Notes under the pieces: model-generated
What the model saw: only the letters and a program-made list of their open reading frames with translations
What the model was told of the DNA's origin: nothing
Databases searched by the model: none
In this document: piece by piece, positions 893-32,000 of the stretch
How positions within the stretch are numbered: position 1 is the first letter of the stretch
Layout: every line of letters starts with the position of its first letter
Position numbers and translations under genes: made by a program
Assembly (NCBI GenBank): GCA_964640155.1
Contig: CAZXEQ010000008.1
Location: 30,001 to 62,000, forward strand
DNA: 32,000 bases
Direction of reading: 5' to 3'
Origin: an uncultured bacterium
GTDB lineage: Bacteria; Auribacterota; JACPWU01

Positions 893-921
893 ACTCTCAC
901 ATAAATTGAAACAGGAACCGT

Positions 922-1560: not shown

Positions 1561-1576
1561 AAGCAGCTTTCTTTTA

Positions 1577-4701: not shown

Positions 4702-4733
4702 AGTTCAACTCCTTAATTTACTTGGCCCTATTT

Positions 4734-5060
4734 TTATTTCAGTTTTACGTAATATCCAATACAAGAACGAACTAATTCAGAAACGTATTTTTCCTGATCC
4801 TCTTTAGAAATATCTATTTTGGGAAGAGGAAGAACAACAGGAAAAGGTTTTTCCTCAAGATGTTTTTGAAGTTTTTTGTCATTTGTAGGAAACAGGTCTT
4901 CTTCAATCGCAACTAAACTCGGTTCATTTCTATCTATAAAACCTTGCAAAAGATCTTTGGCTTCCTGTGCAGATTTTACTTCCAGCACATTAACCCCAGC
5001 CAGCCGAAAACCGCTTGACCAATCTCCTTTGCTAATCAGACTAAAAGGAACTTTAGACAT
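4734..5060 (-). CDS. atpF: V/A-type ATP synthase subunit F
   Basis: Small protein (SKGDWSSGFRLAGVNVLEVKSAQEAKDLL...LVAIEEDLF) typical of F subunits. The track ORF begins at a TTG (5078). ATG 5060 has GAGGA 8 nt upstream and overlaps the atpC stop (5053-5055) in an ATGTCTAA arrangement, so I prefer 5060. Confidence 0.75.
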   Translation of the reverse strand: MSKVPFSLISKGDWSSGFRLAGVNVLEVKSAQEAKDLLQGFIDRNEPSLVAIEEDLFPTNDKKLQKHLEEKPFPVVLPLPKIDISKEDQEKYVSELVRSCIGYYVKLK

Positions 5061-6108: not shown

Positions 6109-6126
6109 TGTTTTTTGTGCTTTTTA

Positions 6127-6711
6127 TTATGATGACGGCCAAAGGTTTTTGACCACCTCCGTCGTTAAATTACTCATCGCTTTTGAGAGCCGATTATCCA
6201 GAGTGTTTTCAATGATCAACTTATGATCCGCTGTTTTTACAACAACACCATTTAAAACCTTTGGATTTGAATGAACATCGGCTTCTTTGTGAAGCTGTTT
6301 AAGTAAGTTTTGAACTAAAGAAACATCCTTTGCAGAAACTTCTATAGTCACTTTACCTGTTAAATTCTTTAAGGATTCTTGAAGCAGGCTTTCAAGAATC
6401 TGTGGATAATCTGATTCTTTTGATGTTTTCTGAATCCGCTCTTGTGCATTTGCATAGACATTGTCAAAGGCTTTTCGTCGAGATTCCAGAAGAAGTTGAT
6501 TGCTTTGAGATTTTGCATTTCCAAGCATTTTGGCTTCTTCCATATCCATCTCTTCTTTAGCCTTTGTCATGATTTCATCACGCGATTTTTCAATTTCAGA
6601 TTTTGTCTGATTTTGAAGAAGCTGAATCTGGGTCTCAGACTCCTCGCGAATTTTGTTTTTTTCTATAGATGCCTCTTTTTCAAGAGCCTCTAGCATTAAT
6701 TCAATAGACAT
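6127..6711 (-). CDS. atpE: V/A-type ATP synthase subunit E (peripheral stalk)
   Basis: 194 aa. It has a long charged N-terminal coiled coil followed by a globular C-terminal domain. It lies between K and C. Confidence 0.75.
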   Translation of the reverse strand: MSIELMLEALEKEASIEKNKIREESETQIQLLQNQTKSEIEKSRDEIMTKAKEEMDMEEAKMLGNAKSQSNQLLLESRRKAFDNVYANAQERIQKTSKESDYPQILESLLQESLKNLTGKVTIEVSAKDVSLVQNLLKQLHKEADVHSNPKVLNGVVVKTADHKLIIENTLDNRLSKAMSNLTTEVVKNLWPSS

Positions 6712-6774
6712 CTCGTCACCTTTTTATTATTCCTTTCAATAACTGAAGGATCGGTACTATTGCATTGCACCTTT

Positions 6775-7110
6775 TTAGAGAACAAATATGATTAAAACTG
6801 CAACGACGAATCCTAAAATAATCATGGTTTCAGGAATGGCTTCTAAAATAATAACAGAACCGACAACTTCTGGTTTTTCAGCCAATGCACCTGCGCCTGC
6901 AGCACCAATTCTGGCTTGAGCGAGTCCTGAAGCCAAAGCAGAAAGGCCTACCGCAATAGCAGCAGCAATTGCCTTAGTTCCAACGTTAGAAGAAGATTTT
7001 TCTGTTTTTACGGCTGTTTCATGCGCAACTTCTGTTTCTGCACTTAAAAAATGAGTTGCACCAAAAAACCACATTCCCAAAACTAAAATTAACCATAAAC
7101 CTTTTTTCAT
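6775..7110 (-). CDS. atpK: V/A-type ATP synthase subunit K (c-ring proteolipid), single hairpin with an N-terminal hydrophobic extension
   Basis: GLSALASGLAQARIGAAGAGALAEKPE...AIPETMIILGFVVAVLIIFVL is a proteolipid hairpin carrying the carboxylate. I prefer ATG 7110 (MKKGLWLILVLG...) because AAGGAG (reverse complement of 7119-7124) lies 8 nt upstream. The track start, GTG 7158, overlaps atpI. Confidence 0.85.
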   Translation of the reverse strand: MKKGLWLILVLGMWFFGATHFLSAETEVAHETAVKTEKSSSNVGTKAIAAAIAVGLSALASGLAQARIGAAGAGALAEKPEVVGSVIILEAIPETMIILGFVVAVLIIFVL

Positions 7111-7144
7111 CTCTTTTTCTCCTTTGTACTGTTTTTGAATGTTG

Positions 7145-9013
7145 TTAACGTTTACCACTTTTGGTTAGGGGTTGATAAAAATCCCCGCCTGCTTCATAAA
7201 ATTTTGTAAAAAATTCAACATAATGCAAACGAACAGATTGAATTGTAGGGCTGAAAGCCAAAATCATGTTAATGATATGAAAAGTGATAGCAATGATAGC
7301 TCCTAATATGACATTTCCTACAAGACTTCCCATCATATTTCCGACAAAGGCCAAATAGGCACTTGCGACTCCTACGGCCATTAAACGAGCGTAAGAAAGC
7401 ATGTTCCCCACAAATGAAAGAAGCTCCATCAGCATCATGGGGCCTTTCATGATAATAAGAAGAGGAATCGATATAACGATCGCAATCACCGATGGAATCT
7501 TAATGACATTGGGGATTTGGCCGGCCAAAACACCGATTAAGGCAAATAGACTAGCCAGGGCCACTAAAATGGCTATCACTTCAATAGTTTCATGATTGTG
7601 ACGATGTCTTATAGATTGAATTAACTTTAAAACGAAACCTAAAGTCACATGCATGACGCCTATTCCAATGGCTAGCAAAAGAAGGGGGACTAGAGAATGC
7701 ATTCTGTTCCATTCGATGGTAGTGCCACCCAAATGCATGGTGAGGGGATGAAGAACGCCTTTTCTTTCAAGCCAGTCGCCAAAACATTCGCCAAATACAA
7801 ATCCAAATATAATGGTATAAGTCGACGCCATAAGGATGATTTCAGAAACACTTTTTATCATTTCATTTTTGGTTTTAAATCTAAGAATAAGTGCTATTAC
7901 AAAGAAAATAGCGCCGTAACCAATGTCACCCATGATCAAACCAAAGAAAATGGGAAAGAAAATAGCAACAAACGGCGTAGGATCAATGCTTCCATATTTG
8001 GGAGGGCGAAGCACTTTTATAAAAAGTTCAAAGGGTCGTGCCCAGCGTTTATTTTGAAGAAGAGTAGGGGCATGATGACAATCTTCCACGCCTAAATAAA
8101 CGGAAGAACCAAAATGTTTTTGAAGTGCTGTTTCCAAACTTTTAATATCTTTTTCAGGATTAAAACCTGTAAGGACAAAAGTTTTTTGAGTTTGTCCAAG
8201 CCCTCGATTCGCTTTTAGCGCATTAATTCGATCTTGAATTCTAAATTTGAATGATTGAAGTGACGAAAGATTCTTATCTGAAATTTCTTGAAGATTTTTT
8301 TCGACCTCTTTAAGAAGATTTGGAATTTCTTGATGTCTTATTTCCATTTGCTTTACGGCATCTGAAAAAGAATAAGAAGCCAATGAAGAGGGTAGTTTGA
8401 TTTCGCTTAGCCCATAGCGATTTAAAAAAGAACGCAATTGAGAACTTTGAGATTTGTAGAAGGCAATTACAAGACCTAAACTATCAGAATCCGTGGATCT
8501 CTTAAAAAGAAGAACTTTCCCAGCGAAAAGCTTTGCCAGTTCTTGTTCCATTTCTTCCAAACGCTTGCTTTCTCTCTTTGAGACAATAAATCCTAAGGTT
8601 TCAAAGTTTTTACTTCCTGAAAGAGGTTCAAGTAAGGGAGCGAGGGTTTTTAAGGTCTCTTGATAAGCTCTAATAATGGAAAGTTCGTCGCTTAGTGTTT
8701 GCTTCTTTTGTCCTAAATCATAAACTTTTTGAGATAAATCATTAGACCATGATTCCCAATCTTTAATTTCTGAATCCAAAGTTGAATGACTTATCTTTTG
8801 AGAAACAGGCAAAAGAGAAGTTAACGTTTCAAGTTTGGCCAGGAGTTTTTCTTGGGCGCTAAGTTCATGCCCTAATTTCTCATCTAAACGCTTTTTCTCA
8901 GTTTTTTCGGATTCTGTAAGATGAACGGTGCCTAATTCTTGGAGGAGATCGATTACAGCCTGTGTCAGAGATTTAGGTCCCGACACAACGATCTTCTTCA
9001 TCTGTGCAATCAT
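7145..9013 (-). CDS. atpI: V/A-type ATP synthase subunit I (a-type stator/ion channel)
   Basis: 622 aa. It has a soluble coiled-coil N-terminal half and a polytopic C-terminal half containing NMLSYARLMAVGVAS, which holds the conserved stator arginine. It overlaps the upstream gene in an ATGA arrangement. Confidence 0.85.
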   Translation of the reverse strand: MIAQMKKIVVSGPKSLTQAVIDLLQELGTVHLTESEKTEKKRLDEKLGHELSAQEKLLAKLETLTSLLPVSQKISHSTLDSEIKDWESWSNDLSQKVYDLGQKKQTLSDELSIIRAYQETLKTLAPLLEPLSGSKNFETLGFIVSKRESKRLEEMEQELAKLFAGKVLLFKRSTDSDSLGLVIAFYKSQSSQLRSFLNRYGLSEIKLPSSLASYSFSDAVKQMEIRHQEIPNLLKEVEKNLQEISDKNLSSLQSFKFRIQDRINALKANRGLGQTQKTFVLTGFNPEKDIKSLETALQKHFGSSVYLGVEDCHHAPTLLQNKRWARPFELFIKVLRPPKYGSIDPTPFVAIFFPIFFGLIMGDIGYGAIFFVIALILRFKTKNEMIKSVSEIILMASTYTIIFGFVFGECFGDWLERKGVLHPLTMHLGGTTIEWNRMHSLVPLLLLAIGIGVMHVTLGFVLKLIQSIRHRHNHETIEVIAILVALASLFALIGVLAGQIPNVIKIPSVIAIVISIPLLIIMKGPMMLMELLSFVGNMLSYARLMAVGVASAYLAFVGNMMGSLVGNVILGAIIAITFHIINMILAFSPTIQSVRLHYVEFFTKFYEAGGDFYQPLTKSGKR

Positions 9014-9408
9014 GAAGAAGCCTCCGACAAAATATCCAGTTTTTCTTTGGATGCTTTTGAGGCGTGTTTTGGAAGCATAGCCGATAGTACAACCTGAATT
9101 GCGTTGTTTGTATTTTGTTGGGCTTGTTTTAGGAGTTTCTCATATTCTTTTTTAGCTTCAGAAAGAATTTCTTCGGTTTGAACAGCTAAAGTTTTTCTTC
9201 TATCTATTTTGTATTTTTCAGCTTCTTCCCGAGCTTTTTTAAGAGATTTTTCAAAGGCTTCTTTTGAAGTCTTGCGTGCTGTTTCAACCTGTTCTAAAGC
9301 TTGAGCTTGTGCTTCTTGAATAGATTTTTCTATTTTTTCTTCTTTTAGTTTTATTTTTTTGAGAAGCTCTATTTCTAAATTGTGATCTGCTTGAGATTTG
9401 TGTTCCAT
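9010..9408 (-). CDS. coiled-coil peripheral-stalk-like protein, first gene of the V-ATPase operon (H/G-like)
   Basis: 132 aa, almost entirely charged heptad-like sequence (KIKLKEEKIEKSIQEAQAQALEQVETARKTSKEAFEKSLKKAREEAEKYK). It is translationally coupled (ATGA) to atpI. The assignment rests on position and composition only. Confidence 0.55.
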   Translation of the reverse strand: MEHKSQADHNLEIELLKKIKLKEEKIEKSIQEAQAQALEQVETARKTSKEAFEKSLKKAREEAEKYKIDRRKTLAVQTEEILSEAKKEYEKLLKQAQQNTNNAIQVVLSAMLPKHASKASKEKLDILSEASS

Positions 9409-9835: not shown

Positions 9836-12800
9836 ATGCGATTTTCTCTAAAATTATTCGTAACTTCAATTGTATTATTCGCCTTCTTTTTAAATTCTAT
9901 AAATGTCTCATTTTCAGACACTACGTCTATTCCAACTTCAAAATTTGAAAACTCAAATATTGCTTGTTCTGTTTTTATTCCAGAAGCCTATGGAAGTATT
10001 GATCAATCACATATTGATGGCAAATCTCAAGTAATTTTGATCAAAGATGTGCATTGTCAGTATGAGGCTCAAAAGAATATATCCAAAATACTAGAAACCC
10101 TCATTCGAGATTATAAGGTGGATTTGGTTTGCGTAGAAGGAGCAGAAGGTTTGGTGGATACATCTGCTTTTAGCGCTTATCCTGATTCAAAGATGAGGGA
10201 GAAAGTAGCTGATAAATATCTTAAAAATGGAATTTTGAGTGCCTCTGAAGCGCTCTCAATAGCAAAAGCAAAAGATTCACCTTTTACTATTTATGGGGTT
10301 GAGGAGACAAGATTATATTTAGAAAATTTTACCGGATTTAGAAATACGATTAAGAATAAATCGGAAACAAAAAGATTTATTGAAATCATAAGTTCGGTGA
10401 TTCATTTATTAAAATCAAAAATTTTTAATAAAGGCTTGCTGGAATTAGATGGAAAAGCTCTTAAATATGAAGACGGCAAGCTGGACATAAAGGATTGGGT
10501 TGAATATTTAAGCTCAAATAATAGCTTTGTGAGCAAAAAAGAAAACATTCAGTTTTTTCTTGAAATAAATCGGCTCAGCAAAAAAGTTGATTTTAGAGCT
10601 TTGGAAAAGGAGAGGAAGTTTTTTATTGAGGAACTAGGAAAGAAACTCACTAAAAATGAATTAAAGATCGTCATTGAAAAGACTTTATTTCTTAGGCTTG
10701 GGAAAATATCTGCAGAAAATTATTTTAAATTCATTGATTCTCATTTGCATCATTTCAAAGACTCAGAATCTATTGCAAATCTTAAGCGGTATAGCCAATT
10801 GATTAAACTTCAAGCTAAGCTTGATTTTCAAGTTCTTTCAGACGAAATAGAAGAAGTGGAACAGATGATCCGAAATAATCTTTATCAGAACACCACAGAA
10901 AGTGACTTAGATCAAACTGCTAAAACGGTACGAATCTTAGATAAGCTTTATCAGTTGACGCTCACACGCAAAGAACTGAAGTATTACCATCACAACAAAA
11001 CTCTCTTATCTCTCTCAGCAATTCTAAAATCTGTTTTGACGCTGGCCCAAAAACAGAAAATCAATATTCCTTCTGAACTGAATGACAAAAAATTGATTGA
11101 TAAAGTGAGTCAAGTCAATCAACCCGCGCAATATTTTTATAAGAAGGCATTAGAACGAGACAAGATTCTTGTCAAAAATCTTCTCGAAAAAATGAAAAAG
11201 GATCATGAAGACACTGCTGTAATTGTCGTAGGTGGATTTCATGCGGATGGAATCATTCAAGAATTAAAAGACAGACAGGTTTCATATATTACGATTCTTC
11301 CCAGAATTACCAAGATCGATGAAAAGTCGCCTTATCTCAATGTCATGATGAATCAATTCAAAAATTTCAATCAATCAGTAGGAGAAGTGGGTATAAAAAA
11401 TCTCTCCCCAGTTTTAGCTCTGAGTGAATTGGGTAAAATATTGACGCATTGGGCATCTCGTATAGCTCATGATGAGATAGGACGAAAAAGCATTGAAGAT
11501 CTAGTTGCTCAGTATGGAGGGATTGATCTAAAAAGCATTAAAGAGCTTTTCAAGTTAGCAGGAATAGCTTTTATGTCGACAATGTTTCTAGAAAAAGCTT
11601 TATTGGCAGGAAGTGTCTTAGACTTAAAAAGTGAAATAATGACGATAACCGAATATAGAATTATCAATACTCCTGACGATCTTACAGCATCATTTTTAAT
11701 AGAAGCATTAAAAATAGCAAATATCTTGAGACAAAGAAAAGGATATAGAAGTTTGGATATTGAAAGTGTGATACAGAAAAGACGCGAGAAGATAATTGCT
11801 AGATCTAAAGTGAGAGACATAAAAACGCCAATCGATTTTTCGAAAGATGCAGCGGCAGATCAGATTTTAGAGGCTTTGAATAGCTTATGGGCACAGCATA
11901 TTTATCGAGGGATAAATATGAACGTGGGAGACGCATGGATTCTCTTTGTGGGAGAGTTTTTTGAAGGATATTCTTTGGAAGCAAAATTCTATTTACAGAG
12001 AAAGATAGGAGATGATCAGAAAAAGAAAGATTCCTTAGCAGAATTGTTATCTGAAGTTTCAAAAAGAAAAAACATTCAAGATTGCTATACAGCAGCTTAT
12101 ATGTGGGCGATCGTGCTTTCCCAGGCTTTTGAAGTAGGAGTTTTGATTGAAGAAGATGAATATACATTACATATCCACAGTGATATTCCCTCAGAAGTAA
12201 AGATGGGTTTTACCAGTAGTACTACTGATAGACGTACAGGTATTGCCATTAGAACAGAGGGAAGAGAAGCATTATTAGATGGAGACTTTTCAGGCATTAT
12301 ATTTGGCCTAGAAGACGCAGGAGTTAAAAATAATTGGATGAAAGGAGCAAAGGTTTTTCGAGATGGATGGAGAAAAGATGGAATAGTATTCCCATACATA
12401 GAATGTCAACCAGAATCAGTAGCAGAAAACAAAAAAAGAGCTTCTATCGATAAAAGACCCTCCGATCAAAATCCGCTTGTGGGAAAATCTGAAATAACAC
12501 CAGTTGCTGTTTCTAAGCCATCGCCAAAGGTTCAAAGCACGTCTTGGAACAAAATATTTGATGCTTTCATATATGTTTTCATTGCAGTAGTGGGGATAGT
12601 ATTTGTTGTTATCTTAGTTTTAGTTCTTTACATTCTTCTTAAGCCTGCTGGAAATATGTCTTCAATAAGTCGTTTTTCCGAGTTTCCGTCTTCAGCGTTG
12701 GCGAGCGTTTTAAAAGGAGCATCAAAAGAAAGCAAGACACCGGCTACTATAGGAGATTCAAGGGTTTATTTGTTTGGGGAACAGAATAGAGATGAACTTG

Positions 12801-13153
12801 TGCAAGATATACAGAGAACAGCTAAACAGATTTTGGGGGCAAATGTAATTATTGATGGTAAGAAGGTTTTTAAACTTTTGAAAGAAGATAAAATTAATAA
12901 ACAAATTATGTTATCTGATGTTATAGAAGCAATGCCGGAGGGGATGAACGCTCAAGCAGTCGTCGCGTTGGGTCTTCAGCTAAGTCAATTAGCTTCGCTA
13001 CAAAAAGTGGTGGGCCAAGATGCATTAAACGAAGGCGGGAGCGTTATCTGTTCGATTTTAATGGAAGTCGTGAAGGGAGCGAGAAGAGGTGTTGAGACTA
13101 AAGATCTTGAAGTCTTATCCTCTCAGCATAGATACTGTGACGTTGCGGCATAA
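9836..13153 (+). CDS. giant exported/membrane protein of unknown function with a TraB/GumN/Tiki-like motif set (paralog 1)
   Basis: 1105-aa uninterrupted ORF. N-terminal signal/anchor MRFSLKLFVTSIVLFAFFLNSINVSFS. Motifs: ILIKDVH(73)CQYEAQ, VDLVCVE(101)GAEG, VIVVGGFH(469)ADGI. One strong internal TM segment, FDAFIYVFIAVVGIVFVVILVLVLYILL (about 12557-12645), is followed by a tail of about 170 aa. The N-terminal ~500 aa are colinear with the ORF at 28394. Confidence 0.85.
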   Translation: MRFSLKLFVTSIVLFAFFLNSINVSFSDTTSIPTSKFENSNIACSVFIPEAYGSIDQSHIDGKSQVILIKDVHCQYEAQKNISKILETLIRDYKVDLVCVEGAEGLVDTSAFSAYPDSKMREKVADKYLKNGILSASEALSIAKAKDSPFTIYGVEETRLYLENFTGFRNTIKNKSETKRFIEIISSVIHLLKSKIFNKGLLELDGKALKYEDGKLDIKDWVEYLSSNNSFVSKKENIQFFLEINRLSKKVDFRALEKERKFFIEELGKKLTKNELKIVIEKTLFLRLGKISAENYFKFIDSHLHHFKDSESIANLKRYSQLIKLQAKLDFQVLSDEIEEVEQMIRNNLYQNTTESDLDQTAKTVRILDKLYQLTLTRKELKYYHHNKTLLSLSAILKSVLTLAQKQKINIPSELNDKKLIDKVSQVNQPAQYFYKKALERDKILVKNLLEKMKKDHEDTAVIVVGGFHADGIIQELKDRQVSYITILPRITKIDEKSPYLNVMMNQFKNFNQSVGEVGIKNLSPVLALSELGKILTHWASRIAHDEIGRKSIEDLVAQYGGIDLKSIKELFKLAGIAFMSTMFLEKALLAGSVLDLKSEIMTITEYRIINTPDDLTASFLIEALKIANILRQRKGYRSLDIESVIQKRREKIIARSKVRDIKTPIDFSKDAAADQILEALNSLWAQHIYRGINMNVGDAWILFVGEFFEGYSLEAKFYLQRKIGDDQKKKDSLAELLSEVSKRKNIQDCYTAAYMWAIVLSQAFEVGVLIEEDEYTLHIHSDIPSEVKMGFTSSTTDRRTGIAIRTEGREALLDGDFSGIIFGLEDAGVKNNWMKGAKVFRDGWRKDGIVFPYIECQPESVAENKKRASIDKRPSDQNPLVGKSEITPVAVSKPSPKVQSTSWNKIFDAFIYVFIAVVGIVFVVILVLVLYILLKPAGNMSSISRFSEFPSSALASVLKGASKESKTPATIGDSRVYLFGEQNRDELVQDIQRTAKQILGANVIIDGKKVFKLLKEDKINKQIMLSDVIEAMPEGMNAQAVVALGLQLSQLASLQKVVGQDALNEGGSVICSILMEVVKGARRGVETKDLEVLSSQHRYCDVAA

Positions 13154-13383: not shown

Positions 13384-16300
13384 ATGCTTCGGTGGATTTT
13401 AAGCAAGACAATTGGAACTAAAAATGAAAGAGAAGTGCGGCGTTTGTTTAAAAGAGTTGCCGCAATTAATGAAAAAGAGATTGAGTATCAAAGTTTAAGT
13501 GAAGAAGCTTTAAAAGCTAAGACGACTGAATTTCGAGATCGGCTTTCTAAAGGCGAAACACTTGATGATCTTTTGGTTGAAGCCTTTGCAGTGGTTAAAA
13601 ATGCTTGCCGCAGAATGGTAGGCAAATCTTGGAATGTGGTAGGTCATCCTTTGCGTTGGGAAATGATTCCTTTTGATGTGCAACTCATTGGAGGAATGGT
13701 TTTACATCAGGGAAAGATTGCTGAAATGGCAACAGGAGAAGGGAAAACACTTGTTGCGACTCTACCTGTTTATTTGAATGCTTTGGCCAATCCGGTTCAT
13801 TTGGTGACGGTCAATGACTATTTGGCAGAGCGTGATTGTGAATGGATGGGTGAGATTTATAAATTTTTAGGTTTGAGTGTTGCATTTCTTCAAAACAGCA
13901 TGGATTTCGAAGACAGAAAAAGAGTGTACGCTTGCGATATTGTTTATGGAACGAACAGTGAATTTGGCTTTGATTATCTAAGAGATAACAGCATGGCGAC
14001 ACGCGTTGAGGAGCAAGTTCAACGCGGTCATTTTTACGCTATTATTGATGAAGTGGATAGCATTTTGATTGATGAAGCACGTACGCCACTTATTATTTCG
14101 GGTCCTTCCACAGTTTCAACGCATCGCTATGATGAATTAAAACCTCTGGTGCAAAATTTATTTCAGAAACAAACTCTTTTATGTAATCGCTTGCTTAAAG
14201 AAGCTCGCGACGTTATCGAAAAAGAAACCTCATCGAAAGAGGAAAGAGAGCAGGCGCAACTTAAACTTTTTCAAGTGCTTAAGGGAACCCCAAAGAATCG
14301 ACAGCTTTTAAAAATGATGGAAGAGCCCTCCAATCGAACCATCTTGGACAAAATAGAACTTCAAATGATGAGTGAGCTTCGTAAGCAGGAGAGATATGAG
14401 GCGATTGAAGAGCTCTATTTTAGCATTGATGAAAAGGGTCATGAAATTGATCTGACAGAAAAAGGAAGATCTCTTATAGCGCCTAAAGATCCGCATGAGT
14501 TTACTCTGCCAGATTTAGGAAGTATTTTTCAGGAAATCGATTTAAATGAAGCTCTAACCGAAGAAGAAAAACAGCGACAAAAAGACAAGATTCAAAATGA
14601 TTATAACGATAAGGGCGAAAGACTTCATAATTTAAGTCAGCTTTTGCGTGCTTACTCTCTTTTTGAAAAGGATGTTGATTATGTCGTCCAAGATAATAAG
14701 GTTTTAATTGTCGATGAATTTACAGGACGCTTAATGCCTGGACGACGTTATAGCGATGGTCTTCATCAAGCGCTTGAAGCTAAAGAAGGTGTAAAAATTG
14801 AACGTGAAACTCAAACGTTTGCAACAATTACGATTCAGAATTATTTCAGAATGTATAAAAAATTATCAGGCATGACTGGTACTGCAGAAACTGAAGCCAA
14901 CGAGTTTTTTCAAATTTATAAATTGTCTGTTGTTGTGATTCCTACGAACGATAAAATTCGTCGCATGGACTATCACGATGTGATTTATAAAACGCGACGA
15001 GAAAAATACAATGCAATGGTGAATGAGATAGCTCAATTTCATGAGGCCAAGCATCCTGTTCTGGTTGGAACGGTTTCAGTCGAAGCGTCGGAAGTTTTAA
15101 GTCGACTTCTTAAGAGACGAGGGATTGTTCACGAAGTTTTGAATGCGCGTCAGCATCAAAGAGAAGCTGAGATTGTCTCCAGAGCAGGCCAGCCTGGGGC
15201 AGTGACCATTGCAACAAATATGGCGGGCCGTGGAACTGATATTAAACTTGCCCCCAGTGTTGTTAAAAGCACCAATTGTGCACTTATAGCGCCTAAATCT
15301 AGCAAAGAACCTTGTCCTCATTTGGAAGAGCTTCAATGTAAAAAGAAAGTTCCATGTGGTCTTCATGTCATTGGCTCAGAACGTCACGAAGCTCGCCGTA
15401 TTGATCGTCAGCTCAGAGGACGAAGTGGACGTCAAGGAGATGCAGGATCTTCACGTTTTTATATTTCTCTGGAAGATGATTTGATGCGACTTTTTGGATC
15501 CGATCGTATTGCTCGGGTGATGGATCGTATGGGAATTGAAGAGGGGCAAGATTTGACTCATCCCTTGTTAACCCGGTCTATAGAAACAGCGCAAAAACGT
15601 GTGGAGCAACGCAATTTTGGAGTTCGTAAACATACTCTTGAATTTGACGATGTTATGAATAAACAGCGTCAGGTAATTTATGATTTTCGTAATCATGTCT
15701 TAAGAGGCGAACGCCTCAAAGACGACATTCTCGAAATTATTACAGAAGTTGTAACTCTTAAAGCCAATGAGTTTTTTTCGGAAAGTGGTGAGATTGATTT
15801 AGCTGGATTTTGTAAATGGATAGATTCGACGTTTCCTCTTCATTTAAGTCAGAGAATGAACTCGTATGAGGAAAAAGATAAAGAAGAAGTCCTAGAACTT
15901 CTTTTAAAAGAAATTAATGGATTATACGAGTTCAAAGAAAAAATTGAAGAAGACCGCATGCCTCGCCTTGAACGCATCGTTCTTCTAAATGTAATTGATC
16001 GTTTATGGCGAGAGCATCTCTATAATATGGATTCTCTGCGGGAAGGGGTTTATCTGAGGGCTTATGGTCAGAAGGATCCCTTGGTAGAGTATCGTGCAGA
16101 AGGTTATACGATGTTTTCAGAGCTGATGGGGAATATAAAGTCCGAAATTTGCAGAGAAATTTTCAGAATTACCGCAACTCCAGAATATTTTGAGAAAGCT
16201 ATGAAGGCTTTGCCCACGCAATTGATTCACAAACAGGTCGAAGGTTTTCAAGTGGCCGGACCTCAACCTGCTCAAGCGCAAGAAACTGAGCAGAATATAG

Positions 16301-18034: not shown

Positions 18035-19149
18035 AATTTTAGAAAGAGTTAAGACGGTGGATCAACAGTTTAAAGATTTAAGAAAGTTTCTTTGACTACG
18101 ATAATAAAAAGGCCCGCCTCAAAAAACTAGAAGAAGAAATGTCTCAACAGGCATTTTGGGATAGCTCTGAGAAATCTAGAAAAACCATTGATGAAGTTAA
18201 GCTGCTCAAAGGAAAACTTGATCCGTTTGATCAATTCGAAAAAAAATTTCATGATTTAAAAAGCGTTTTAGATTTAGTTCATGGAGAGGATTCTGCCGAA
18301 GCGCATGAACTTATCAAGGAGATAAACACAGATCTTTCAGGTCTTGAAAAGAAGATTGGAGATCTTGAAATTAGAAATATTTTAGGTGGCCAGTATGACG
18401 CTAATTCAGCAATTATAACGATTCATTCCGGTGCAGGAGGAACAGAATCTTGTGATTGGGTAGAAATGTTACTGCGCATGTATCGCCGCTGGATTGAAAC
18501 ACATGGATTTAAAGATGAGATTGCGGAAATCATGTTAGGAGAAGAAGCGGGCATCAAAAGTGTCACGCTGATTGTTGAAGGGGAATATGCCTATGGATAT
18601 TTAAAGGCCGAAAAGGGCATACATCGATTGGTGAGAATCTCTCCGTTTGATTCCAATAAAAGACGACATACGTCATTTGCTTCTATGGATGTAATTCCAG
18701 AAATTGCTGATGATGTCGAAGTAGACATTCAGGATAAAGATTTGCGCATTGATACATTCAGGGCCAGTGGAGCAGGTGGCCAGCATGTCAATAAAACAGA
18801 CTCTGCAGTTCGGCTTACACATATTCCAACGGGTATTGTTGTGGCTTGTCAAAACGAAAGATCACAGCATAAGAATAAAGCCACTGCTATGAAGGTGTTG
18901 CGTGCAAAACTCTATGACCTGAAGCAAAAAGAACAGACGGAAAGAATGGCCAAGATTCAAGGTCAAAAAGCAGATATTGCCTGGGGAAGTCAAATCAGGT
19001 CTTATGTTTTTCAACCTTATACCATGGTTAAGGATCATCGAACGGGTGTTGAAACTTCCAATGGAAATGCGGTGATGGACGGCGATATCGATGCATTCAT
19101 TCAGGCGTATTTACGGGGAGTTCGTAGACCGGATAGGGAAGTTTCTTAG
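18024..19149 (+). CDS. prfB: peptide chain release factor 2, made by a programmed +1 frameshift (18024..18092 joined to 18094..19149)
   Basis: Frame 0 reads MLPEILERVKTVDQQFKDLRKFL and then TGA (18093-18095). The +1 frame continues DYDNKKARLKKLEEEMSQQ... into the 336-aa track ORF, which contains the RF2 SPF motif (RISPFDS) and GGQ (GAGGQHVNKT). AAGGAG lies 7 nt upstream of ATG 18024. The start overlaps the lnt 3' end by 11 nt. Confidence 0.93.
18090..18096 (+). promoter_or_regulatory. prfB +1 frameshift site CTT TGA C
   Basis: This is an exact match to the canonical RF2 autoregulatory shift heptamer. The upstream stimulator is only a weak purine-rich stretch (AAGAAAG, 18081-18087) rather than a strong SD-like AGGGGG. 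Confidence 0.85.
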
Positions 19150-19251
19150 AAAATAAACCTGAAAACTGATACTTGGCGCTTGGAATTTTTATTAAATAAA
19201 GATATATTCATCACCTCTTTTAGATCAGATTATTACCAGATGAATTAATTG

Positions 19252-19325
19252 CGGGCCGTAGCGTAGCCTGGTAGCGCGCCTGAATGGGGTTCAGGAGGTC
19301 GGGAGTTCGATTCTCCCCGGCCCGA
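19252..19325 (+). tRNA. tRNA-Pro (anticodon GGG)
   Basis: Folded by hand. Acceptor stem CGGGCCG/CGGCCCG; D stem GCGT/GCGC with a GG-containing loop; anticodon stem CCTGA/TCAGG with loop A-T-GGG-G-T; variable loop AGGTC; T arm GGGAG-TTCGATT-CTCCC; discriminator A. CCA is not encoded. A C1-G72 pair and G37 are typical of tRNA-Pro. Confidence 0.9.
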
Positions 19326-19328
19326 TAT
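19293..19328 (+). repeat. direct repeat copy 1 (3' part of tRNA-Pro plus 3 nt)
   Basis: AGGAGGTCGGGAGTTCGATTCTCCCCGGCCCGATAT. This 36 nt is identical to 19587-19622. Confidence 0.9.
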
Positions 19329-19586
19329 GTTTGTTTGATTTTATGCATGCTTATGAGATTAAACGGCTTTAAACTCCTGAACCAGGAAAGGGTACGGGAA
19401 AACAGTCGTTTTCCCGATGAGATTTTGATCCCACCACCTGATAGTTTGCCAGGAGGCAAGCCTCAAAGAGGCGTTCGCTTCGCGAACTCTATTAGGTGGC
19501 GGGATGATTCCTGAGTAGGAAGGATAGATCGAGAAAGGAAACCATAGGTTGCCTTTCTCGGGAGGAGTCCGAAGACGACGACGTGA
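19329..19586 (+). ncRNA. candidate unclassified structured RNA, or relic of an integrated element, between the tRNA-Pro 3'-end repeats
   Basis: Perfect or near-perfect helices: 19395-19403/19408-19416 (9 bp); 19428-19444/19489-19505 (17 positions, 1 mismatch, 1 G-U) enclosing hairpins 19446-19450/19455-19459 and 19473-19478/19482-19487; 19508-19512/19517-19521; 19530-19538/19552-19560 (9 bp) with inner 19540-19543/19547-19550. The segment is visibly more GC-rich than its flanks. I recognised no known family. Confidence 0.35.
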
Positions 19587-19622
19587 AGGAGGTCGGGAGT
19601 TCGATTCTCCCCGGCCCGATAT
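19587..19622 (+). repeat. direct repeat copy 2 (orphan 3' part of tRNA-Pro, att-like)
   Basis: Identical 36 nt to 19293-19328. The sequence upstream of it (GACGACGACGTGA) has no similarity to the 5' part of the tRNA, so this is not a second tRNA gene. Confidence 0.9.
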
Positions 19623-19692
19623 TTTAAAACCATCATTTCATATCTTGTGTTTAGCGGTTAGTAAAAATGAAACAAAGTAGATTGGAGATAAC

Positions 19693-20667
19693 ATGAAAAT
19701 TTTTAGCATGTGTTTTATGTTTGTTCTTGCTGCCATTCTTCCATCTCAAGCAGACTCTGTCAAAAATCAAATTAAATTTCAGGAAATATCCGAAAAGCAG
19801 ACTGTTATATCAATGGAGTTTCAATATTCAAGTGAAGGGAAGGGGACGGTCCTTTTTGAAAAACGAGGATATGATTGGAAAGCTATTGTTCGCGACCCAA
19901 GTCGCAAAATTATAAAAATGCTTGATATTCCTTCCAGTAAGATTTTGGACATAGGTGTGTTAAATCTTCGCGGTGAAGGGGATGAAGATATTTTCTTTGC
20001 AGGTAAACAATCCGGATCAGATTTTCATATTACTCAATTAAGTTTATTAAATACAAAGCAACTTTCGCTGATTACTTTGTCCATGCGATTTGATGATCAG
20101 AAAACACATCCTATTTCAGTTGTAAAGAGATCGGAAAATTTTTCTCAAGAGTTATTGAAACCCGAAAGTGACTTCTTAGAGAAAGTTAAATTCGAATATG
20201 GTTATTTGGATCAGCAAATGATCGAGCAGGATTCTGCAAATCCAAAATATGCTTTTTATTTCTGGGCTAAAGATAATGTAAATCTTGTAAATGGCACCGT
20301 GAAGACTCGTTCCTATCAAGGGTCTGTTTCTGATCTAGGGAAAACAACAGATCAATGGGAGGAGAATGGAATTGAGTATGTTGCCTATAAAATGGGACCG
20401 GTGATTGCTTATAATAAAAGTAAAAACGAACACGTTGTTCTTTATCATCCCAACAGCATGTATCATTGGCCAACAGTATTGCGTAAAGTAAATGAGTATT
20501 TGGTCATTGGAACTAAGGGGGAAGGTCTTATTGTTATTGATCTTAGAAATTTTCGGTTTAAGAGGCATCGTTTCTTTAATCATGATGATGATATAAAAAG
20601 AATTAAGTTGTTGGAAGGCAATAAAGTTCTTGTGAATGACTTTAGAGTAATTCCGTTAAATTGGTAG
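19693..20667 (+). CDS. hypothetical secreted protein
   Basis: 324 aa. Signal-peptide-like N-terminus MKIFSMCFMFVLAAILPSQA, with GGAG upstream of the ATG. I recognised no motif. Confidence 0.7.
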   Translation: MKIFSMCFMFVLAAILPSQADSVKNQIKFQEISEKQTVISMEFQYSSEGKGTVLFEKRGYDWKAIVRDPSRKIIKMLDIPSSKILDIGVLNLRGEGDEDIFFAGKQSGSDFHITQLSLLNTKQLSLITLSMRFDDQKTHPISVVKRSENFSQELLKPESDFLEKVKFEYGYLDQQMIEQDSANPKYAFYFWAKDNVNLVNGTVKTRSYQGSVSDLGKTTDQWEENGIEYVAYKMGPVIAYNKSKNEHVVLYHPNSMYHWPTVLRKVNEYLVIGTKGEGLIVIDLRNFRFKRHRFFNHDDDIKRIKLLEGNKVLVNDFRVIPLNW

Positions 20668-22958: not shown

Positions 22959-24257
22959 ATGAACTCTATAAAAATTGGACTTATTGGATGCGGGACTGTT
23001 GGAAGTGGCGTTGTGGAGCTTCTCTCGAAAAATCGAGATTTAATTGCTTCTAGAACAGGAATTTTTCTTGATTTAAAAAAAATCGCTATTCATGACACTA
23101 AAAAGAAGCGGTCTTCTTTTTTAAACCAGGATTGCTTAACATCAAATCCTGAAGTGGTTGTAAGCGATCCCCAGATTCAAATTGTTGCAGAGTTGATGGG
23201 CGGAATCCATCCCGCCAAAGAATTAATTCTAAAAGCACTTCGAAGCGGGAAACATGTTGTTACGGCCAATAAAGCTTTGCTTGCGCAATGCGGACAGGAG
23301 CTTTTTGAAGTGGCTAACCAATATCAACGCCATCTTTTTTTTGAAGCAAGTGTGGGTGGGGGCATTCCTGTTATAAAAGGACTGCGTGAAGGTTTGGTTG
23401 GAAATCATTTAAAAGCGATTTATGGTATTGTGAATGGAACCTCAAATTTTATTTTAAGCAAAATGAGTTTAGAAGGAGTTGATTTTCAAGAAGCTTTAAA
23501 AGAAGCCAAAAAACTAGGTTATGCAGAAGCTAATCCGCGTTTTGATTTAGAGGGAATTGATTCTGCTCATAAGCTTGTGATTCTGACTTCACTGGCTTAT
23601 GGGCATTGGATTCCACTCAAAAAAGTTTATACGGAAGGTATTACAAAAATCACAGCCCAAGACATTGAACGGGCGAGAGAATTTGGATATGTTATTAAGC
23701 TTTTAGCAATTGCAAAAGATAAAGGTGATGCAATTGAAGCGCATGTGCATCCAACTTTGATTTCACGCCACCATTCGCTCTCTTCGGTGAATGGTGTTTA
23801 TAATGCAATTTTTTACGAGGGAGACTTTGTAGGGCAAGGACTTCTTTATGGGAAAGGTGCAGGCGCAGGTCCTACAGCCAGTGCAGTTGTAAGCGACATT
23901 GTAGATGCGGCAAAAAAGCTTGGAGACATAAAAATTGATTTTGAAGCAAGATCTTTGGCCAAGTCAAAGAATGTTGAAAGTATGGATGAGTTGATTGGAC
24001 GCTCTTACTTAAGATTTTCTGCCCTTGATCAGCCAGGCGTGCTAGCAAAAATTGCTGGGGTTTTAGGTAAACATGGCATCAGCATTTCTTCAGTGATTCA
24101 AAAAGAAAGACACGCCAGCGGTGCGGTGCCTGTTGTTGTGATGACACATCAAGCTAAAGAAAAAAATTTTAGAGAAGCCATTGAAAAGATTGATCAGATG
24201 GATGCGATTCGTTCAAAAACTTTAAGAATTCGAGTAGAAGAGGAAGGTGTCGAATGA
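22959..24257 (+). CDS. hom: homoserine dehydrogenase (with C-terminal ACT domain)
   Basis: 432 aa. Motifs: IGLIGCGTVGSGV (NAD-binding fold), VTANKALLA, GGGIPVIK, GIVNGTSNFIL, and a C-terminal ACT-like segment (DQPGVLAKIAGVLGKHGISI). Confidence 0.93.
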   Translation: MNSIKIGLIGCGTVGSGVVELLSKNRDLIASRTGIFLDLKKIAIHDTKKKRSSFLNQDCLTSNPEVVVSDPQIQIVAELMGGIHPAKELILKALRSGKHVVTANKALLAQCGQELFEVANQYQRHLFFEASVGGGIPVIKGLREGLVGNHLKAIYGIVNGTSNFILSKMSLEGVDFQEALKEAKKLGYAEANPRFDLEGIDSAHKLVILTSLAYGHWIPLKKVYTEGITKITAQDIERAREFGYVIKLLAIAKDKGDAIEAHVHPTLISRHHSLSSVNGVYNAIFYEGDFVGQGLLYGKGAGAGPTASAVVSDIVDAAKKLGDIKIDFEARSLAKSKNVESMDELIGRSYLRFSALDQPGVLAKIAGVLGKHGISISSVIQKERHASGAVPVVVMTHQAKEKNFREAIEKIDQMDAIRSKTLRIRVEEEGVE

Positions 24258-28207: not shown

Positions 28208-28393
28208 TGCGATTTCTTCGCAAATAAGTTTCTTATCTTTTTTCTAAAAAAATTGTTTTTTGTTTACCTTTTCTTGACTAGCTCATCTACCTGTAATAAG
28301 CTTGCCACTAAGATTGTTAAATAAAACAAACTTGTAGCAAATTAAGAGCACTCTCCTTAAAAATGGCTAATCTGTAATAAGTCATTACAACTT

Positions 28394-31300
28394 ATGGAGG
28401 ATAACAATTTGTTACGGAGAATTATTGTTGGCTTATTAATTTTTTCTTTAAGCCTGGATATCACTGGTATTAGTGTAAAAAGGCAACTTCAGGCTCAAGT
28501 CCTCCCTCTGTCCAATCCTCAAAAAGCAGGAACTTCATTAGGAATTGATTCTTTAGATCTTAAAGATATGCAGCTAGAAAAAACCTTTAAAGGATCTCTG
28601 CCTTTTCAAATTATTCTTATTCGAGATATTCATGCCGAACCAGAAGCCCAATTCAAGATTGCGGATTCACTCAAAGAAATATGTAAACAATTATCTGCTA
28701 AAGTATTTATTGAGGGGGCCTCTGGGGTTGTTCGTCCTTTATTATATCAATCTTTTCCCGATAAGAATATTCGGCGTAAAGCTAGTAAGACCTTTGTTGA
28801 AAAAGGTTATTTAACTGGGGCTGAATTTGCAGCTATTGAAATGGGTTTACAGAGTAATTTAAAAATTTACGGTGTTGAGAATATTAATCTTTACATCAAG
28901 AATTTAAAGGCTTTTTGGAAAACTCGCCAATTACACAAAAAAAATGAAACTATGATTGAGAGAATAGAAGTTTCTTTAAAAGAACTTAAAGACAAGTGCT
29001 TCTCTTTAGAACTCCAAAAACTTGATTTTATGGAGAAATCTCTAAATGATAAAAATTTTAATTTAAAAGAAATCATCGGCTCATTAGAACCGCTTTTATT
29101 CAAAGAAGGATGGGTTTGGGATAAGTGGAAAAATCTTGCTCAAGTGTATGAGATTTTAAAAACAGGAGAGAGCATAAATCAAAACGCTGTCCAGGAGGAG
29201 TTACAACTTTTATTTAAAGAACTTGAGAAAAAACTTCCCAAAAATCAATTGCAACAGCTTGTGGAAAGTGGACTGACTTATCGGTTAGGAAGGATTTCTG
29301 CATTTGAGTATTTTGAGGATTTAGAAAAAATAGTAAAAACTCAAATGTCTTTAGAAATCTTTGACCGGAAATATCCTCATTTAGAAAAATGGAAACAATT
29401 AAGCTTAAAACAGGAGAAATTTAATTTTTCAAAAGCACAGGAAGAACTTCAAGATCTTATAAACGCTCTCTTTGAAAAGATATCCACACGAGAGGGTGTA
29501 ATAGAATTGAGGAATTTGGATAAGGTTTGGTTTTTGTTTCAGAAGTTGGTTTTACTTAAGTTGTCGAAAGGAGATTTTACAGAAATAAAAAAATGGAATT
29601 TGGAAGAGAATTTTGATCAGTGGCATCATCAACTCATAAAATTAAACGATGTTTCTGTGGTTTTATCTTTGTTCGATATTCAGAGTTTTAAAGAGCTTTT
29701 GCAAACGGCTGAGAGTTTTTATGGGTATGCACAAAAAAGAGATCAGGTGTTAATCAATAATACATTGAAGAGATTGTCTAAGTCCGATGAGGTAGGAGTT
29801 TTAATTACGGGAGGTTTTCATACAGATGGAATTCAACAAGAGCTGGAAAAAGAAAAAATTTCTTATGTTACATGGACGCCACAAATTAGAAATTTTTCCA
29901 AAGAGAATTTTTATGAAAAAATTATGATGGATAGAAGTTTTAATCTTGAAGAGGCCTTTTCCTCAAAACGTTTTATTTTGAGGGATAATTCTGATGAACT
30001 TCGACGCATGCTAGGAATTCCTGTGGATAAAGTATTAAAAGTACTAAACCAGAAAGCATATACACAATTAGATCAAGAAATCTTAGAAGGTTTATTAAGA
30101 GAAGCTGATGAAACCAGAATCGGAACAATCAATGAAACAGTTTCTTCTTGGATGAGAGAAAGGAGACTTGCTCCTGACTGTGATGCTCTAGAAGTAGAAC
30201 GTGTAGCTCTTGCATCTGAAAGATATGCACCTGCAGAGGTTTTTTTATCATTGACCCGCTTAGATAGCAGCAGTCATTGGGAAAGAATTTTAGCTAAGCG
30301 TGTTGTTCGTGAAGCTTTTGGTGGAAGCAAAAAATATGAAGGGCTTGTCTATTTAACTGAAACGATGATGAAGAAAAGCCATCAAGCAACTCAAGCAATT
30401 GTAATAAAAGTCATTCGGAAAATGATGGATGAAGTTCAGATTTTTTTAAAAGAACAAAAAAAGGAAAAAGCCGAAGAAAAAGTGCTGATGGCTTTAGACC
30501 TTCTTATCTATTTTCTTCAGCGCTCTAGAAGTTATTTTGTGCCTTCTTATCTTCTTAAAGAAGTTTTATTGAGAATTAAATCTGATCCAATGAAAGATTT
30601 AGGCCCGGCTTGTTTTGAAAAAATAGCGCCCATGATTGTAGAGATGGAGAGATATTTGCCGAGTGCGTTTTGGATGAGAGAAGCAGTTTGGATGAATCAC
30701 ATTGAACTTATCAAAGCTATAATGAGGCAAGAACAAAAGGCATTGCTGGATGAGAGAGTAGCGTTGTACGAAAGGGCTGGGCTATATCTTTCTGGTTTTT
30801 TAAATGAGATCAAAAAGCTTGCACAAGAGGGTCATCTCAAAGAAGCCTTAGCGCTTTTTGATCTTGTTTTTTTAGAAAATGATTTTAAAGAAGGTGACTT
30901 TTTAAAAGAAATTCAAAAAGTAAAATCTTTTTTAGAAGCTAGAAAACGTTTGCCTGATTTAAGAATGCAGCTATTAGATGCTTCAAAAATTTTTAAAGAA
31001 GGATTAATGATAAAAGATTTTTCAGAAAGTACAGTTACTTTTGAAGAGGTGTTGAGTTTATATCATTCTTCTCAAGTTCTCATGAGGGAGGCTCAATTAG
31101 ATTCTTTTGAAATAAAATTAGGGAATCGTTCTTTTATTTATACTCCTGTGATGCTCGAGGATAGAATTAGCTTGCTCGAGAACTTGATCCATTTTGAAAA
31201 TGCAATTGTAAAGTGGGATGGAACTCAAGTAGAGCATTTTATAGGAGTTCTAAAGAAATGTTTTGAAAAAACGAAACTTTCAGATGAAGAACGTTTAGGA

Positions 31301-32000
31301 TTTGAAAGATTATATGCAGAATATCAACTCATAGCAGAGATTCGCTTGCAAATTATGCAAGGTGATCTTCCCCGGGCGATCAGTCGTATATCATCGCTTC
31401 AAAACGCTGCACAAGCGCTGCCTCTGGCGCAGTTTTTTTATGAGCACTTGTTTGTTCATTTAAAACAGAAATTAACGGATGCTGTTCAAAATTCTGAAGC
31501 TGTTGGGAAAGCATTATTAGAACTTGATGAGCTATTTGCAATCAGATTGCCGGGTCCAGTACCCGCTTCTCTTTATGCTGATATGAGCCTTTTGGAAGAA
31601 CGCTTAAAATCAATCAAGAAGGCTTATAAACTTTATCAGGAAACACTTGAATTAATTGAAAGAGAAGAATTTGAGGGAGTGGAGCAAAATGCTGAGCGGA
31701 TTTCAAGAATATCAACGATCTGGGCCAAGATACTACGTGCAAAATTGGTTGATGAAAAAAATATCTTCAATGCGAAGATTCAAGAGAGATTAGATGAGTA
31801 TTGGAAGAAGGGGGAAGAGGCTTTTAAGAGAGTTTTAACGGTAGAAACAGAGCGGAAGTTTGACAAAGAAGCTTTGCAAACAGCTTTGGAAAATTATTCT
31901 CTTTTACTAAAAGAGAACTCTAAAAATCGGTCTTTAAAAATTGAAAGATCTAAGATTGTTTTGAAGCGTAATTTGATTCAAGCGTTTTTAAAAATTGATG
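28394..32000 (+). CDS. giant exported protein of unknown function, paralog 2 of the 9836 ORF (3' end beyond the window)
   Basis: Hand translation stays open from 28394 to the window end (more than 1200 codons). The track shows no competing long ORF in any frame here. N-terminus: MEDNNLLRRIIVGLLIFSLSLDITGISV. Motifs: ILIRDIH(80)AEPEAQ, KVFIE(107)GASG, VLITGGFH(476)TDGI. After that comes a long helical, repeat-like region. The true start may be TTG 28409, because GGAGG (28396-28400) lies 8 nt upstream of it. Confidence 0.85.
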   Translation, partial: MEDNNLLRRIIVGLLIFSLSLDITGISVKRQLQAQVLPLSNPQKAGTSLGIDSLDLKDMQLEKTFKGSLPFQIILIRDIHAEPEAQFKIADSLKEICKQLSAKVFIEGASGVVRPLLYQSFPDKNIRRKASKTFVEKGYLTGAEFAAIEMGLQSNLKIYGVENINLYIKNLKAFWKTRQLHKKNETMIERIEVSLKELKDKCFSLELQKLDFMEKSLNDKNFNLKEIIGSLEPLLFKEGWVWDKWKNLAQVYEILKTGESINQNAVQEELQLLFKELEKKLPKNQLQQLVESGLTYRLGRISAFEYFEDLEKIVKTQMSLEIFDRKYPHLEKWKQLSLKQEKFNFSKAQEELQDLINALFEKISTREGVIELRNLDKVWFLFQKLVLLKLSKGDFTEIKKWNLEENFDQWHHQLIKLNDVSVVLSLFDIQSFKELLQTAESFYGYAQKRDQVLINNTLKRLSKSDEVGVLITGGFHTDGIQQELEKEKISYVTWTPQIRNFSKENFYEKIMMDRSFNLEEAFSSKRFILRDNSDELRRMLGIPVDKVLKVLNQKAYTQLDQEILEGLLREADETRIGTINETVSSWMRERRLAPDCDALEVERVALASERYAPAEVFLSLTRLDSSSHWERILAKRVVREAFGGSKKYEGLVYLTETMMKKSHQATQAIVIKVIRKMMDEVQIFLKEQKKEKAEEKVLMALDLLIYFLQRSRSYFVPSYLLKEVLLRIKSDPMKDLGPACFEKIAPMIVEMERYLPSAFWMREAVWMNHIELIKAIMRQEQKALLDERVALYERAGLYLSGFLNEIKKLAQEGHLKEALALFDLVFLENDFKEGDFLKEIQKVKSFLEARKRLPDLRMQLLDASKIFKEGLMIKDFSESTVTFEEVLSLYHSSQVLMREAQLDSFEIKLGNRSFIYTPVMLEDRISLLENLIHFENAIVKWDGTQVEHFIGVLKKCFEKTKLSDEERLGFERLYAEYQLIAEIRLQIMQGDLPRAISRISSLQNAAQALPLAQFFYEHLFVHLKQKLTDAVQNSEAVGKALLELDELFAIRLPGPVPASLYADMSLLEERLKSIKKAYKLYQETLELIEREEFEGVEQNAERISRISTIWAKILRAKLVDEKNIFNAKIQERLDEYWKKGEEAFKRVLTVETERKFDKEALQTALENYSLLLKENSKNRSLKIERSKIVLKRNLIQAFLKID

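Follow-up and report, generated by a model that had tools for sequence, protein, structure and literature searches.

What is a gene-less, densely folded segment of 258 nt doing at the 3′ end of a tRNA gene? The segment follows tRNA-Pro(GGG) in a 32,000-nt stretch of DNA (the window, to which all positions refer) from an uncultured lineage of Candidatus Auribacterota, a barely studied candidate phylum of the PVC group. Its GC content is 48% compared with 37.6% for the window, an enrichment that had already been pointed out in a preliminary description made from the sequence. Such a value is as expected for foreign DNA, and GC-rich stems alone would raise it too. The preliminary description proposed a novel non-coding RNA (ncRNA); here, we weigh this proposal against the reading that the segment is inserted mobile DNA.

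A 294-bp insertion polymorphism at the 3′ end of tRNA-Pro

A repeat search revealed that the segment is bounded by a perfect direct repeat of 36 nt, with a start-to-start spacing of 294 nt between the two copies (Table 1). The repeat contains positions 41–73 of tRNA-Pro (33 nt), starting with the final 3 nt of the anticodon stem and continuing through the variable loop, the T-arm and the 3′ strand of the acceptor to the discriminator; the 3-nt trailer TAT completes it. The tRNA is intact at one end of the segment, and a 3′ fragment of the same tRNA lies downstream on the same strand. That a complete tRNA stands on the 5′ side and a T-arm/acceptor fragment on the 3′ side had been described before and was borne out by our data; what had gone unrecognized is that the fragment is one copy of a 36-nt insertion repeat. 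As the repeat ends in TAT and not in CCA, the duplicated sequence was copied from DNA or from a precursor, not from mature tRNA. Retro-insertion primed by mature tRNA was ruled out on account of this genomic trailer and because the repeats are direct, not complementary.

We retrieved the corresponding loci of relatives through the upstream RF2 gene, prfB, using the two closest in the protein collection. The closer one (hereafter the sister) is JAYRIK010000099.1, a contig of the metagenome-assembled genome (MAG) of Candidatus Auribacterota bacterium isolate SZ_szas25bin.51, with an RF2 that is 97% identical; the other (the outgroup) is a Logan contig from sample SRR22387960, with an RF2 that is 87% identical. 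Both share the gene order secA, lnt, prfB, tRNA-Pro(GGG), a 324-aa ORF and a radical-SAM gene, and in both the tRNA is identical to that of the window. In the alignment, the tRNA of these two loci is joined straight to the downstream flank (…CCCGATAT/TTTAAAACC…), and the same flank (TTTAAAACC...) follows the right copy of the repeat in the window. The alignment gap was clean against either relative and measured exactly 294 nt (258 + 36). Taken together, the 36-nt repeat and the empty site in both relatives mean that the window carries a 294-bp insertion, not a conserved intergenic feature: the segment is a strain-specific insertion polymorphism bounded by a duplicated tRNA 3′ end. The preliminary description had made its proposal depend on conservation in relatives, and there is none in either of the two that were available. 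Five more distant relatives (L004 and L006–L009) shared too little synteny to inform the comparison. Since both sister and outgroup are empty, parsimony places the insertion after the split from the sister, and the two copies of the repeat, still identical at 36 of 36 positions, agree with a recent event.

Table 1. Features of the tRNA-Pro locus, in window positions
Feature	Position	Strand	Basis
Sigma-70-like promoter match TTGGAA-17-TATATT, upstream of tRNA-Pro	19180–19208	+	consensus match only; ~0.9 expected by chance
Intact tRNA-Pro, anticodon GGG, putative integration target	19252–19325	+	ARAGORN; Rfam RF00005, 61.6 bits; alignment
Left repeat copy (attL-like identity block)	19293–19328	+	repeat search and sequence
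Element-specific, non-coding, hairpin-dense DNA, 258 nt, 48% GC	19329–19586	.	alignment with sister and outgroup; folding; no Rfam or protein match
AU-rich 14-bp hairpin with 5 G-U pairs	19332–19365	+	only plus-specific helix; weak statistical support
Perfect 9-bp hairpin CGGGAAAAC-AGTC-GTTTTCCCG	19395–19416	.	z −2.8
Four-way junction: 17-position closing helix and three abutting hairpins	19428–19505	.	folding
Junction hairpin TTGCC-AGGA-GGCAA	19446–19459		
Junction hairpin GCCTC-AAA-GAGGC	19460–19472		
Junction hairpin GTTCGC-TTC-GCGAAC	19473–19487		
5-bp hairpin TTCCT-GAGT-AGGAA	19509–19522	.	folding
9 + 4-bp extended hairpin CGAGAAAGG-A-AACC-ATA-GGTT-G-CCTTTCTCG	19530–19560	.	repeat search; z −3.2 for 19506–19565
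Right repeat copy, displaced tRNA-Pro 3′ fragment (attR-like)	19587–19622	+	repeat search, alignment

Structure, coding potential and transcription of the insert

Folding of the 264 nt at 19326–19589 gave a minimum free energy (MFE) of −107.3 kcal/mol for the plus strand, compared with −72.8 ± 5.0 kcal/mol for 200 dinucleotide shuffles, none of which was as stable (z −6.84). For the minus strand of the same 264 nt, the overall z-score was −8.44, and the single-stranded DNA fold reached −8.5. We also scanned the 32-kb stretch in 100-nt windows on both strands (25 shuffles per window), and of the 1278 windows, 19401–19500 was the lowest in MFE as well as in z. The structure excess of the segment, a main claim of the preliminary description, is thus far beyond chance. 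The next most structured 100-nt windows of the scan were 15851–15950 (−; z −5.8), inside the secA coding region, and 23551–23650 (+; z −4.8), inside the homoserine dehydrogenase gene, and with 25 shuffles per window these may be noise.

All helices that had been listed previously are present in the sequence at the positions given for them (Table 1). A unit likened to a three-way junction turned out to be four-way, one of its hairpins (GCCTC-AAA-GAGGC) having been overlooked. Its closing helix (arms 19428–19444 and 19489–19505) contains one A/C mismatch (A19433/C19500) and one G-U pair (G19440/T19493), and the linkers inside the junction are tight, at 0–1 nt. The unit folds with −46.9 kcal/mol (z −7.4) on the plus strand and with −46.3 kcal/mol (z −8.70) on the minus strand. 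The G19440–T19493 wobble had been taken to select the plus-strand transcript, a claim that we have to revise: the A19433/C19500 mismatch turns into a G-U pair on the minus strand, which folds equally well, so that the single wobble does not select the plus strand. Indeed, the main helices comprise 58 Watson–Crick pairs and one G-U pair and therefore favour neither strand. A strand difference was seen only for the left hairpin region (19326–19394), with z −2.24 for plus versus −0.66 for minus. In general, low folding energy alone does not separate RNA structure from DNA-level palindromes, and the z-scores given here are to be read with this in mind. No U-tract terminator was found, in line with the earlier remark that none of the hairpins is followed by a U-tract, and an array of terminators was ruled out on this basis.

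With Rfam 15 at the gathering threshold, tRNA alone passed in the whole window. At E-values up to 10 in the region 19100–19800, the only matches besides tRNA were chance-level ones to SscA, SraB and Plastid-ycf2, far below threshold, and no tmRNA was detected by ARAGORN; the segment still belongs to no RNA family that can be named, as had been said from the start. The ORFs across it had been judged spurious, and our searches agree. None of the open frame pieces of the insert had a credible match in Pfam or PHROGs, which also revealed no integrase pseudogene or other coding remnant. The exact spurious ORFs were not on record in protein databases, the 62-aa plus-frame translation had no word matches among 5.8 billion proteins, and the 76-aa minus-frame translation gave 0 matches by phmmer against 1.84 billion representative proteins.

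No promoter or terminator of the insert's own was found. The sigma-70-like match upstream of tRNA-Pro (Table 1) is the only candidate for a promoter from which the plus strand of the insert could be transcribed; its sequence is the same in the sister and partly diverged in the outgroup. We detected no terminator-like site up to the downstream ORF, so the insert is probably co-transcribed with the tRNA on the plus strand: transcription from the tRNA promoter would continue into it and give the tRNA transcript a passive and very stable extension at its 3′ end. Within the insert, CTCCTGAACC (19374–19383, 10 nt) is an exact complement of tRNA nucleotides 19288–19297 (GGTTCAGGAG), which form the 3′ strand of the anticodon stem and the start of the variable loop. 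By our estimate, ~0.06 such matches are expected by chance, and this one may be a coincidence. In the predicted fold of the full transcript, CTCCTGAACC pairs with the tRNA, and the 5′ acceptor strand of the tRNA pairs with the second copy of the repeat instead of the first. We regard this predicted alternative pairing of the acceptor strand as a thermodynamic curiosity.

According to Pfam, the neighbours of the insert are housekeeping genes (secA, lnt, prfB, radical SAM, peroxiredoxin, hom, an aspartokinase-type gene and a leuA-like gene), and a gene for a PLP-dependent enzyme in the same neighbourhood is probably thrC. The prfB (RF2) gene carries the canonical programmed +1 frameshift motif CTT TGA C at 18085–18100 (tttCTTTGACtac), so the 336-aa ORF at 18139–19149 is only its post-frameshift part. 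ORFs of 1105 aa (9836–13153, +), 132 aa (9010–9408, −) and 324 aa (19693–20667, +) have no Pfam domain. The last of these is lineage-specific, given that it has just two relatives among 5.8 billion proteins, namely its own genome's copy and that of the sister. A further ORF of at least 1213 aa (~28360 to 32000, +) runs past the right end of the window and is absent from the ORF list because the window end cuts it, and a V-type ATPase subunit I homologue is encoded at 7145–9013 (−), where the adjoining minus-strand ORFs (~548–9408) may share an operon.

Origin of the insert

Using blastn with a word size of 7, we found no second copy of the insert, either elsewhere in the window or in those parts of the contigs of the sister, the outgroup and sample SRR8893623 that had been retrieved, and a blastn search in the distant setting against phages and plasmids returned no match. 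Scans for exact matches, which catch near-identical relatives only and which diverged family members would escape, gave 0 matches in viral contigs for 20–24-mers taken from the core of the junction, from either end of the insert and from the hairpin at 19530–19560, and 0 in genome contigs and metagenome contigs for the junction-core 20-mer. In the same kind of search, now for an attP, the tRNA 3′ 33-mer without the tRNA's own preceding C had 0 matches in the viral and metagenome collections, and the 25-nt segment from the T-arm to the end had 0 in the viral collection. Neither an integrase nor another mobile-element gene was present among the 10 window ORFs scanned with Pfam. With no ORF remnant inside and no integrase nearby, the element is non-autonomous.

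In our judgement, it is reasonably likely that the segment is the DNA between the att sites of a very small element without genes at the 3′ end of tRNA-Pro(GGG), which would be either a miniature non-autonomous integrative element or what deletions have left of a larger one (CIME-like). The recombinase would have been a tyrosine integrase that acted in trans or has meanwhile been lost; with a single instance at hand and neither integrase nor parent element seen, it is the layout that points to such an enzyme. Recombination would have taken place between an element-borne copy of the tRNA 3′ end (the attP identity block, 36 bp) and the chromosomal tRNA gene, with a likely crossover at the T-loop TTCGATT, between the symmetric T-stem arms GGGAG and CTCCC. 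The 36-nt block presumably reflects a T-loop sublocation, in keeping with established knowledge of integrase core sites. The product would be an intact tRNA regenerated on the left (attL), a 3′ tRNA fragment displaced to the right (attR) and 258 bp of element DNA between the two. The hairpins would be cis-acting sequence inherited with the element, and candidates for their role are recombination arms, signals for regulation, transfer or replication, and a cargo RNA. As a separate observation, TCGGGAG-GAG-TCCGAAG (19557–19575), which lies immediately within the right boundary of the insert, bears a loose resemblance to the left half of the putative att core, TCGGGAG-TTCGATT; this may reflect a second core-type binding site, the scar of an older event or coincidence.

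Several points speak against this reading. As a substrate for recombination, a circle of 294 bp would be unusually small, and recombination arms are not normally so hairpin-rich. In addition, the agreement between identity block and host extends into the unconstrained TAT trailer, a result that a target-site duplication would give as well. The dense, symmetric structure of the 258 nt (z ∼ −7) is left unexplained by the integration model and may have a function of its own. It may represent cis-acting DNA or single-stranded DNA (ssDNA) signals of the parent element, cargo RNA or nothing functional. We think it unlikely that the 294 bp are a complete, functional mini-element, an integrase-world counterpart of a MITE that combines an att core with a multi-hairpin module and uses an integrase in trans. 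If it were, the module could act as a four-way-junction RNA or as an ssDNA signal for transfer, priming or recombination.

It is similarly doubtful that the 258 nt harbour a functional plus-strand ncRNA, be it cargo or newly acquired, an explanation that is compatible with delivery by integration. Such an RNA would be part of the transcript from the tRNA-Pro promoter and would be released by RNase P, RNase Z or RNase E at the tRNA and the tRNA-like 3′ fragment. The exceptional thermodynamic stability, the promoter-like site upstream with no terminator-like site before the insert, the one plus-only hairpin with its 5 G-U pairs and the lack of a coding signal are all in favour of an RNA, and as the segment matches no known family, this RNA would be new. 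Against this, the segment is absent from both relatives, and no homologues were found from which covariation could have been read. The main helices, with their single G-U pair, are at least as stable on the minus strand and as DNA, whereas selected RNAs are usually richer in wobble pairs and show strand asymmetry. Furthermore, the acceptor strand of the 3′ fragment has no partner inside the insert, so the fragment is not a processing-competent minihelix (19556–19625, z +0.6). Of the original proposal of a novel ncRNA, the exceptional structure, the lack of a family and the non-coding nature stand; a host ncRNA gene does not, since the segment is missing from both relatives and their empty site is intact. 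The segment may still act as an RNA that a mobile element carries as cargo.

An insertion made by something other than an integrase, with a long target-site duplication, appears improbable. This could be a transposon or retroelement that makes 36-bp staggered cuts, or filler DNA captured during repair. It would readily explain why the repeat equals the host sequence exactly, including the unconstrained 3-nt trailer, and why neither an integrase nor a parent element was found. The ends of the insert (GTTTGTTTGATTTT... and ...GACGACGACGTGA) are not terminal inverted repeats, however, and the blastn searches yielded no second copy. The usual duplications of bacterial transposons measure 2–14 bp, which leaves 36 bp far outside their range, and the boundaries of the repeat match the classic integration block of a tRNA 3′ half. 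Because of the ends without inverted repeats and the 36-bp duplication, and as a single copy in the window and the fetched loci, a MITE of the DDE transposon type was ranked low and set aside.

We give little credence to an ancestral arrangement that was lost in the sister and the outgroup, for example by homologous or site-specific recombination between the 36-nt repeats. Recombination between perfect repeats would yield exactly the empty site that we see, and three genomes cannot prove the direction of change. Nevertheless, given that the one empty relative is the sister and the other the outgroup, two independent and precise losses would be needed; the repeats are identical at 36/36 positions even though window and sister have diverged by several percent in nearby intergenic DNA; and the GC content of the insert is foreign. 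Even if this scenario were true, the segment would still have originated as an att-flanked element.

Least probable of all is an assembly artefact, in which the assembler would have built into the contig, at the repeat, a separate small molecule or some other locus with the same 36-nt tRNA segment. The contig does come from a metagenome assembly, and an exact repeat of 36 nt is a branch point in a de Bruijn graph. A Logan contig (k = 31) from SRR8893623 with an identical prfB (locus positions 3001–4011, corresponding to window 18139–19149) does break there: the locus ends at position 4184, the equivalent of window 19322, which is the end of the last 31-mer containing the unique base 19292, and the next 31-mer is common to both copies of the repeat. 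On the other side, modern metagenome assemblers finish at k above 36, at which the junctions need spanning reads, and the contig name k141_564334 of a related MAG shows k = 141. A foreign piece would moreover require the 36-mer on both of its sides, which amounts to a 294-bp circle, that is, the excised form of the same element. Crucially, the break at 19322, an independent sign of the repeat in raw data, requires that the right junction of the element (…GTGA/AGGAGG…) is present in the SRR8893623 reads. The integrated form and a hypothetical excised circle have this junction in common, and the break fits both.

Comparison with known mobile elements and structured RNAs

Like REP/BIME, ERIC, Correia, RUP and Rickettsia palindromic elements, the insert is short and non-coding, forms hairpins and is richer in GC than the AT-rich genome around it, and like other MITE-like repeats of bacteria it is probably co-transcribed with its neighbours and folds equally on both strands. 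Those repeats, in contrast, occur in many copies with terminal inverted repeats and short duplications, and they are not inserted at tRNA 3′ ends between 36-bp repeats. HEARO/omega RNA, bridge RNA, retron msr-msd and ROOL/GOLLD resemble the insert in being multi-helix, non-coding and 150–300+ nt long within mobile DNA. Unlike them, it has no Rfam match at E up to 10, and neither Pfam nor the ORF list showed an adjoining gene for IscB/TnpB, an IS110 recombinase or a reverse transcriptase (RT).

Further parallels are found at tRNA genes. Islander maps integrase-made islands by looking for a complete tDNA that is followed, downstream and on the same strand, by a displaced fragment of its 3′ end, and it rejects candidates <2 kb (PMC4383910). 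In a survey of tDNA islands, the flanking repeats were 15–221 bp long and for the most part spanned T-loop, T-stem and 3′ acceptor half (bioRxiv 10.1101/2020.11.02.365908). Our insert has the intact tDNA, the 3′ fragment on the same strand and, in relatives, an empty site with the same flanks. It has no tyrosine or serine integrase, and its 258 bp plus a 36-bp repeat compare with a minimum of ∼2 kb. As in tyrosine-integrase islands and prophages, the identity block runs over the variable loop, the T-arm and the 3′ strand of the acceptor into trailer nucleotides, and the composition looks foreign. In size, however, the insert lies >10-fold below the smallest islands that standard pipelines accept, the cut-offs being 2, 2.5 and 3.5 kb, with an integrase often required. 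If the insert is a working mini-element, others of its kind would escape island finders, whose cut-offs of 2–3.5 kb and frequent demand for an integrase exclude them.

CIMEs (cis-mobilizable elements) are decayed derivatives of ICEs or IMEs that keep attL and attR after loss of the genes for integration and transfer (PMC5704250). The insert likewise retains perfect 36-nt repeats resembling attL and attR, and integration and transfer genes are absent. It shares with CIMEs the direct att repeats at a tRNA 3′ end, the lack of integrase, excisionase and transfer genes, and a mobility that would be possible only with a recombinase in trans. It differs from them in its cargo of 258 bp of non-coding DNA, in that no cognate ICE, IME or integrase was found, and in its host from an uncultured Candidatus Auribacterota lineage. 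The CIMEs described to date are, to our knowledge, kilobase-scale and gene-carrying.

If the insert is a remnant, it provides a clean example of decay within an integrated element whose att repeats were kept perfect, as well as a caution that exceptionally structured ‘intergenic RNAs’ near tRNA genes can be scars of mobile DNA. If it is a working unit, it would define a class of elements that are shorter than a kilobase, have no genes and rely on tRNA-targeting integrases, and its four-way-junction module would be a new cis-acting or RNA element. Compared with the systems above, the putative att-flanked integrative element or CIME is extremely miniaturised, smaller by about an order of magnitude than what standard pipelines retain.
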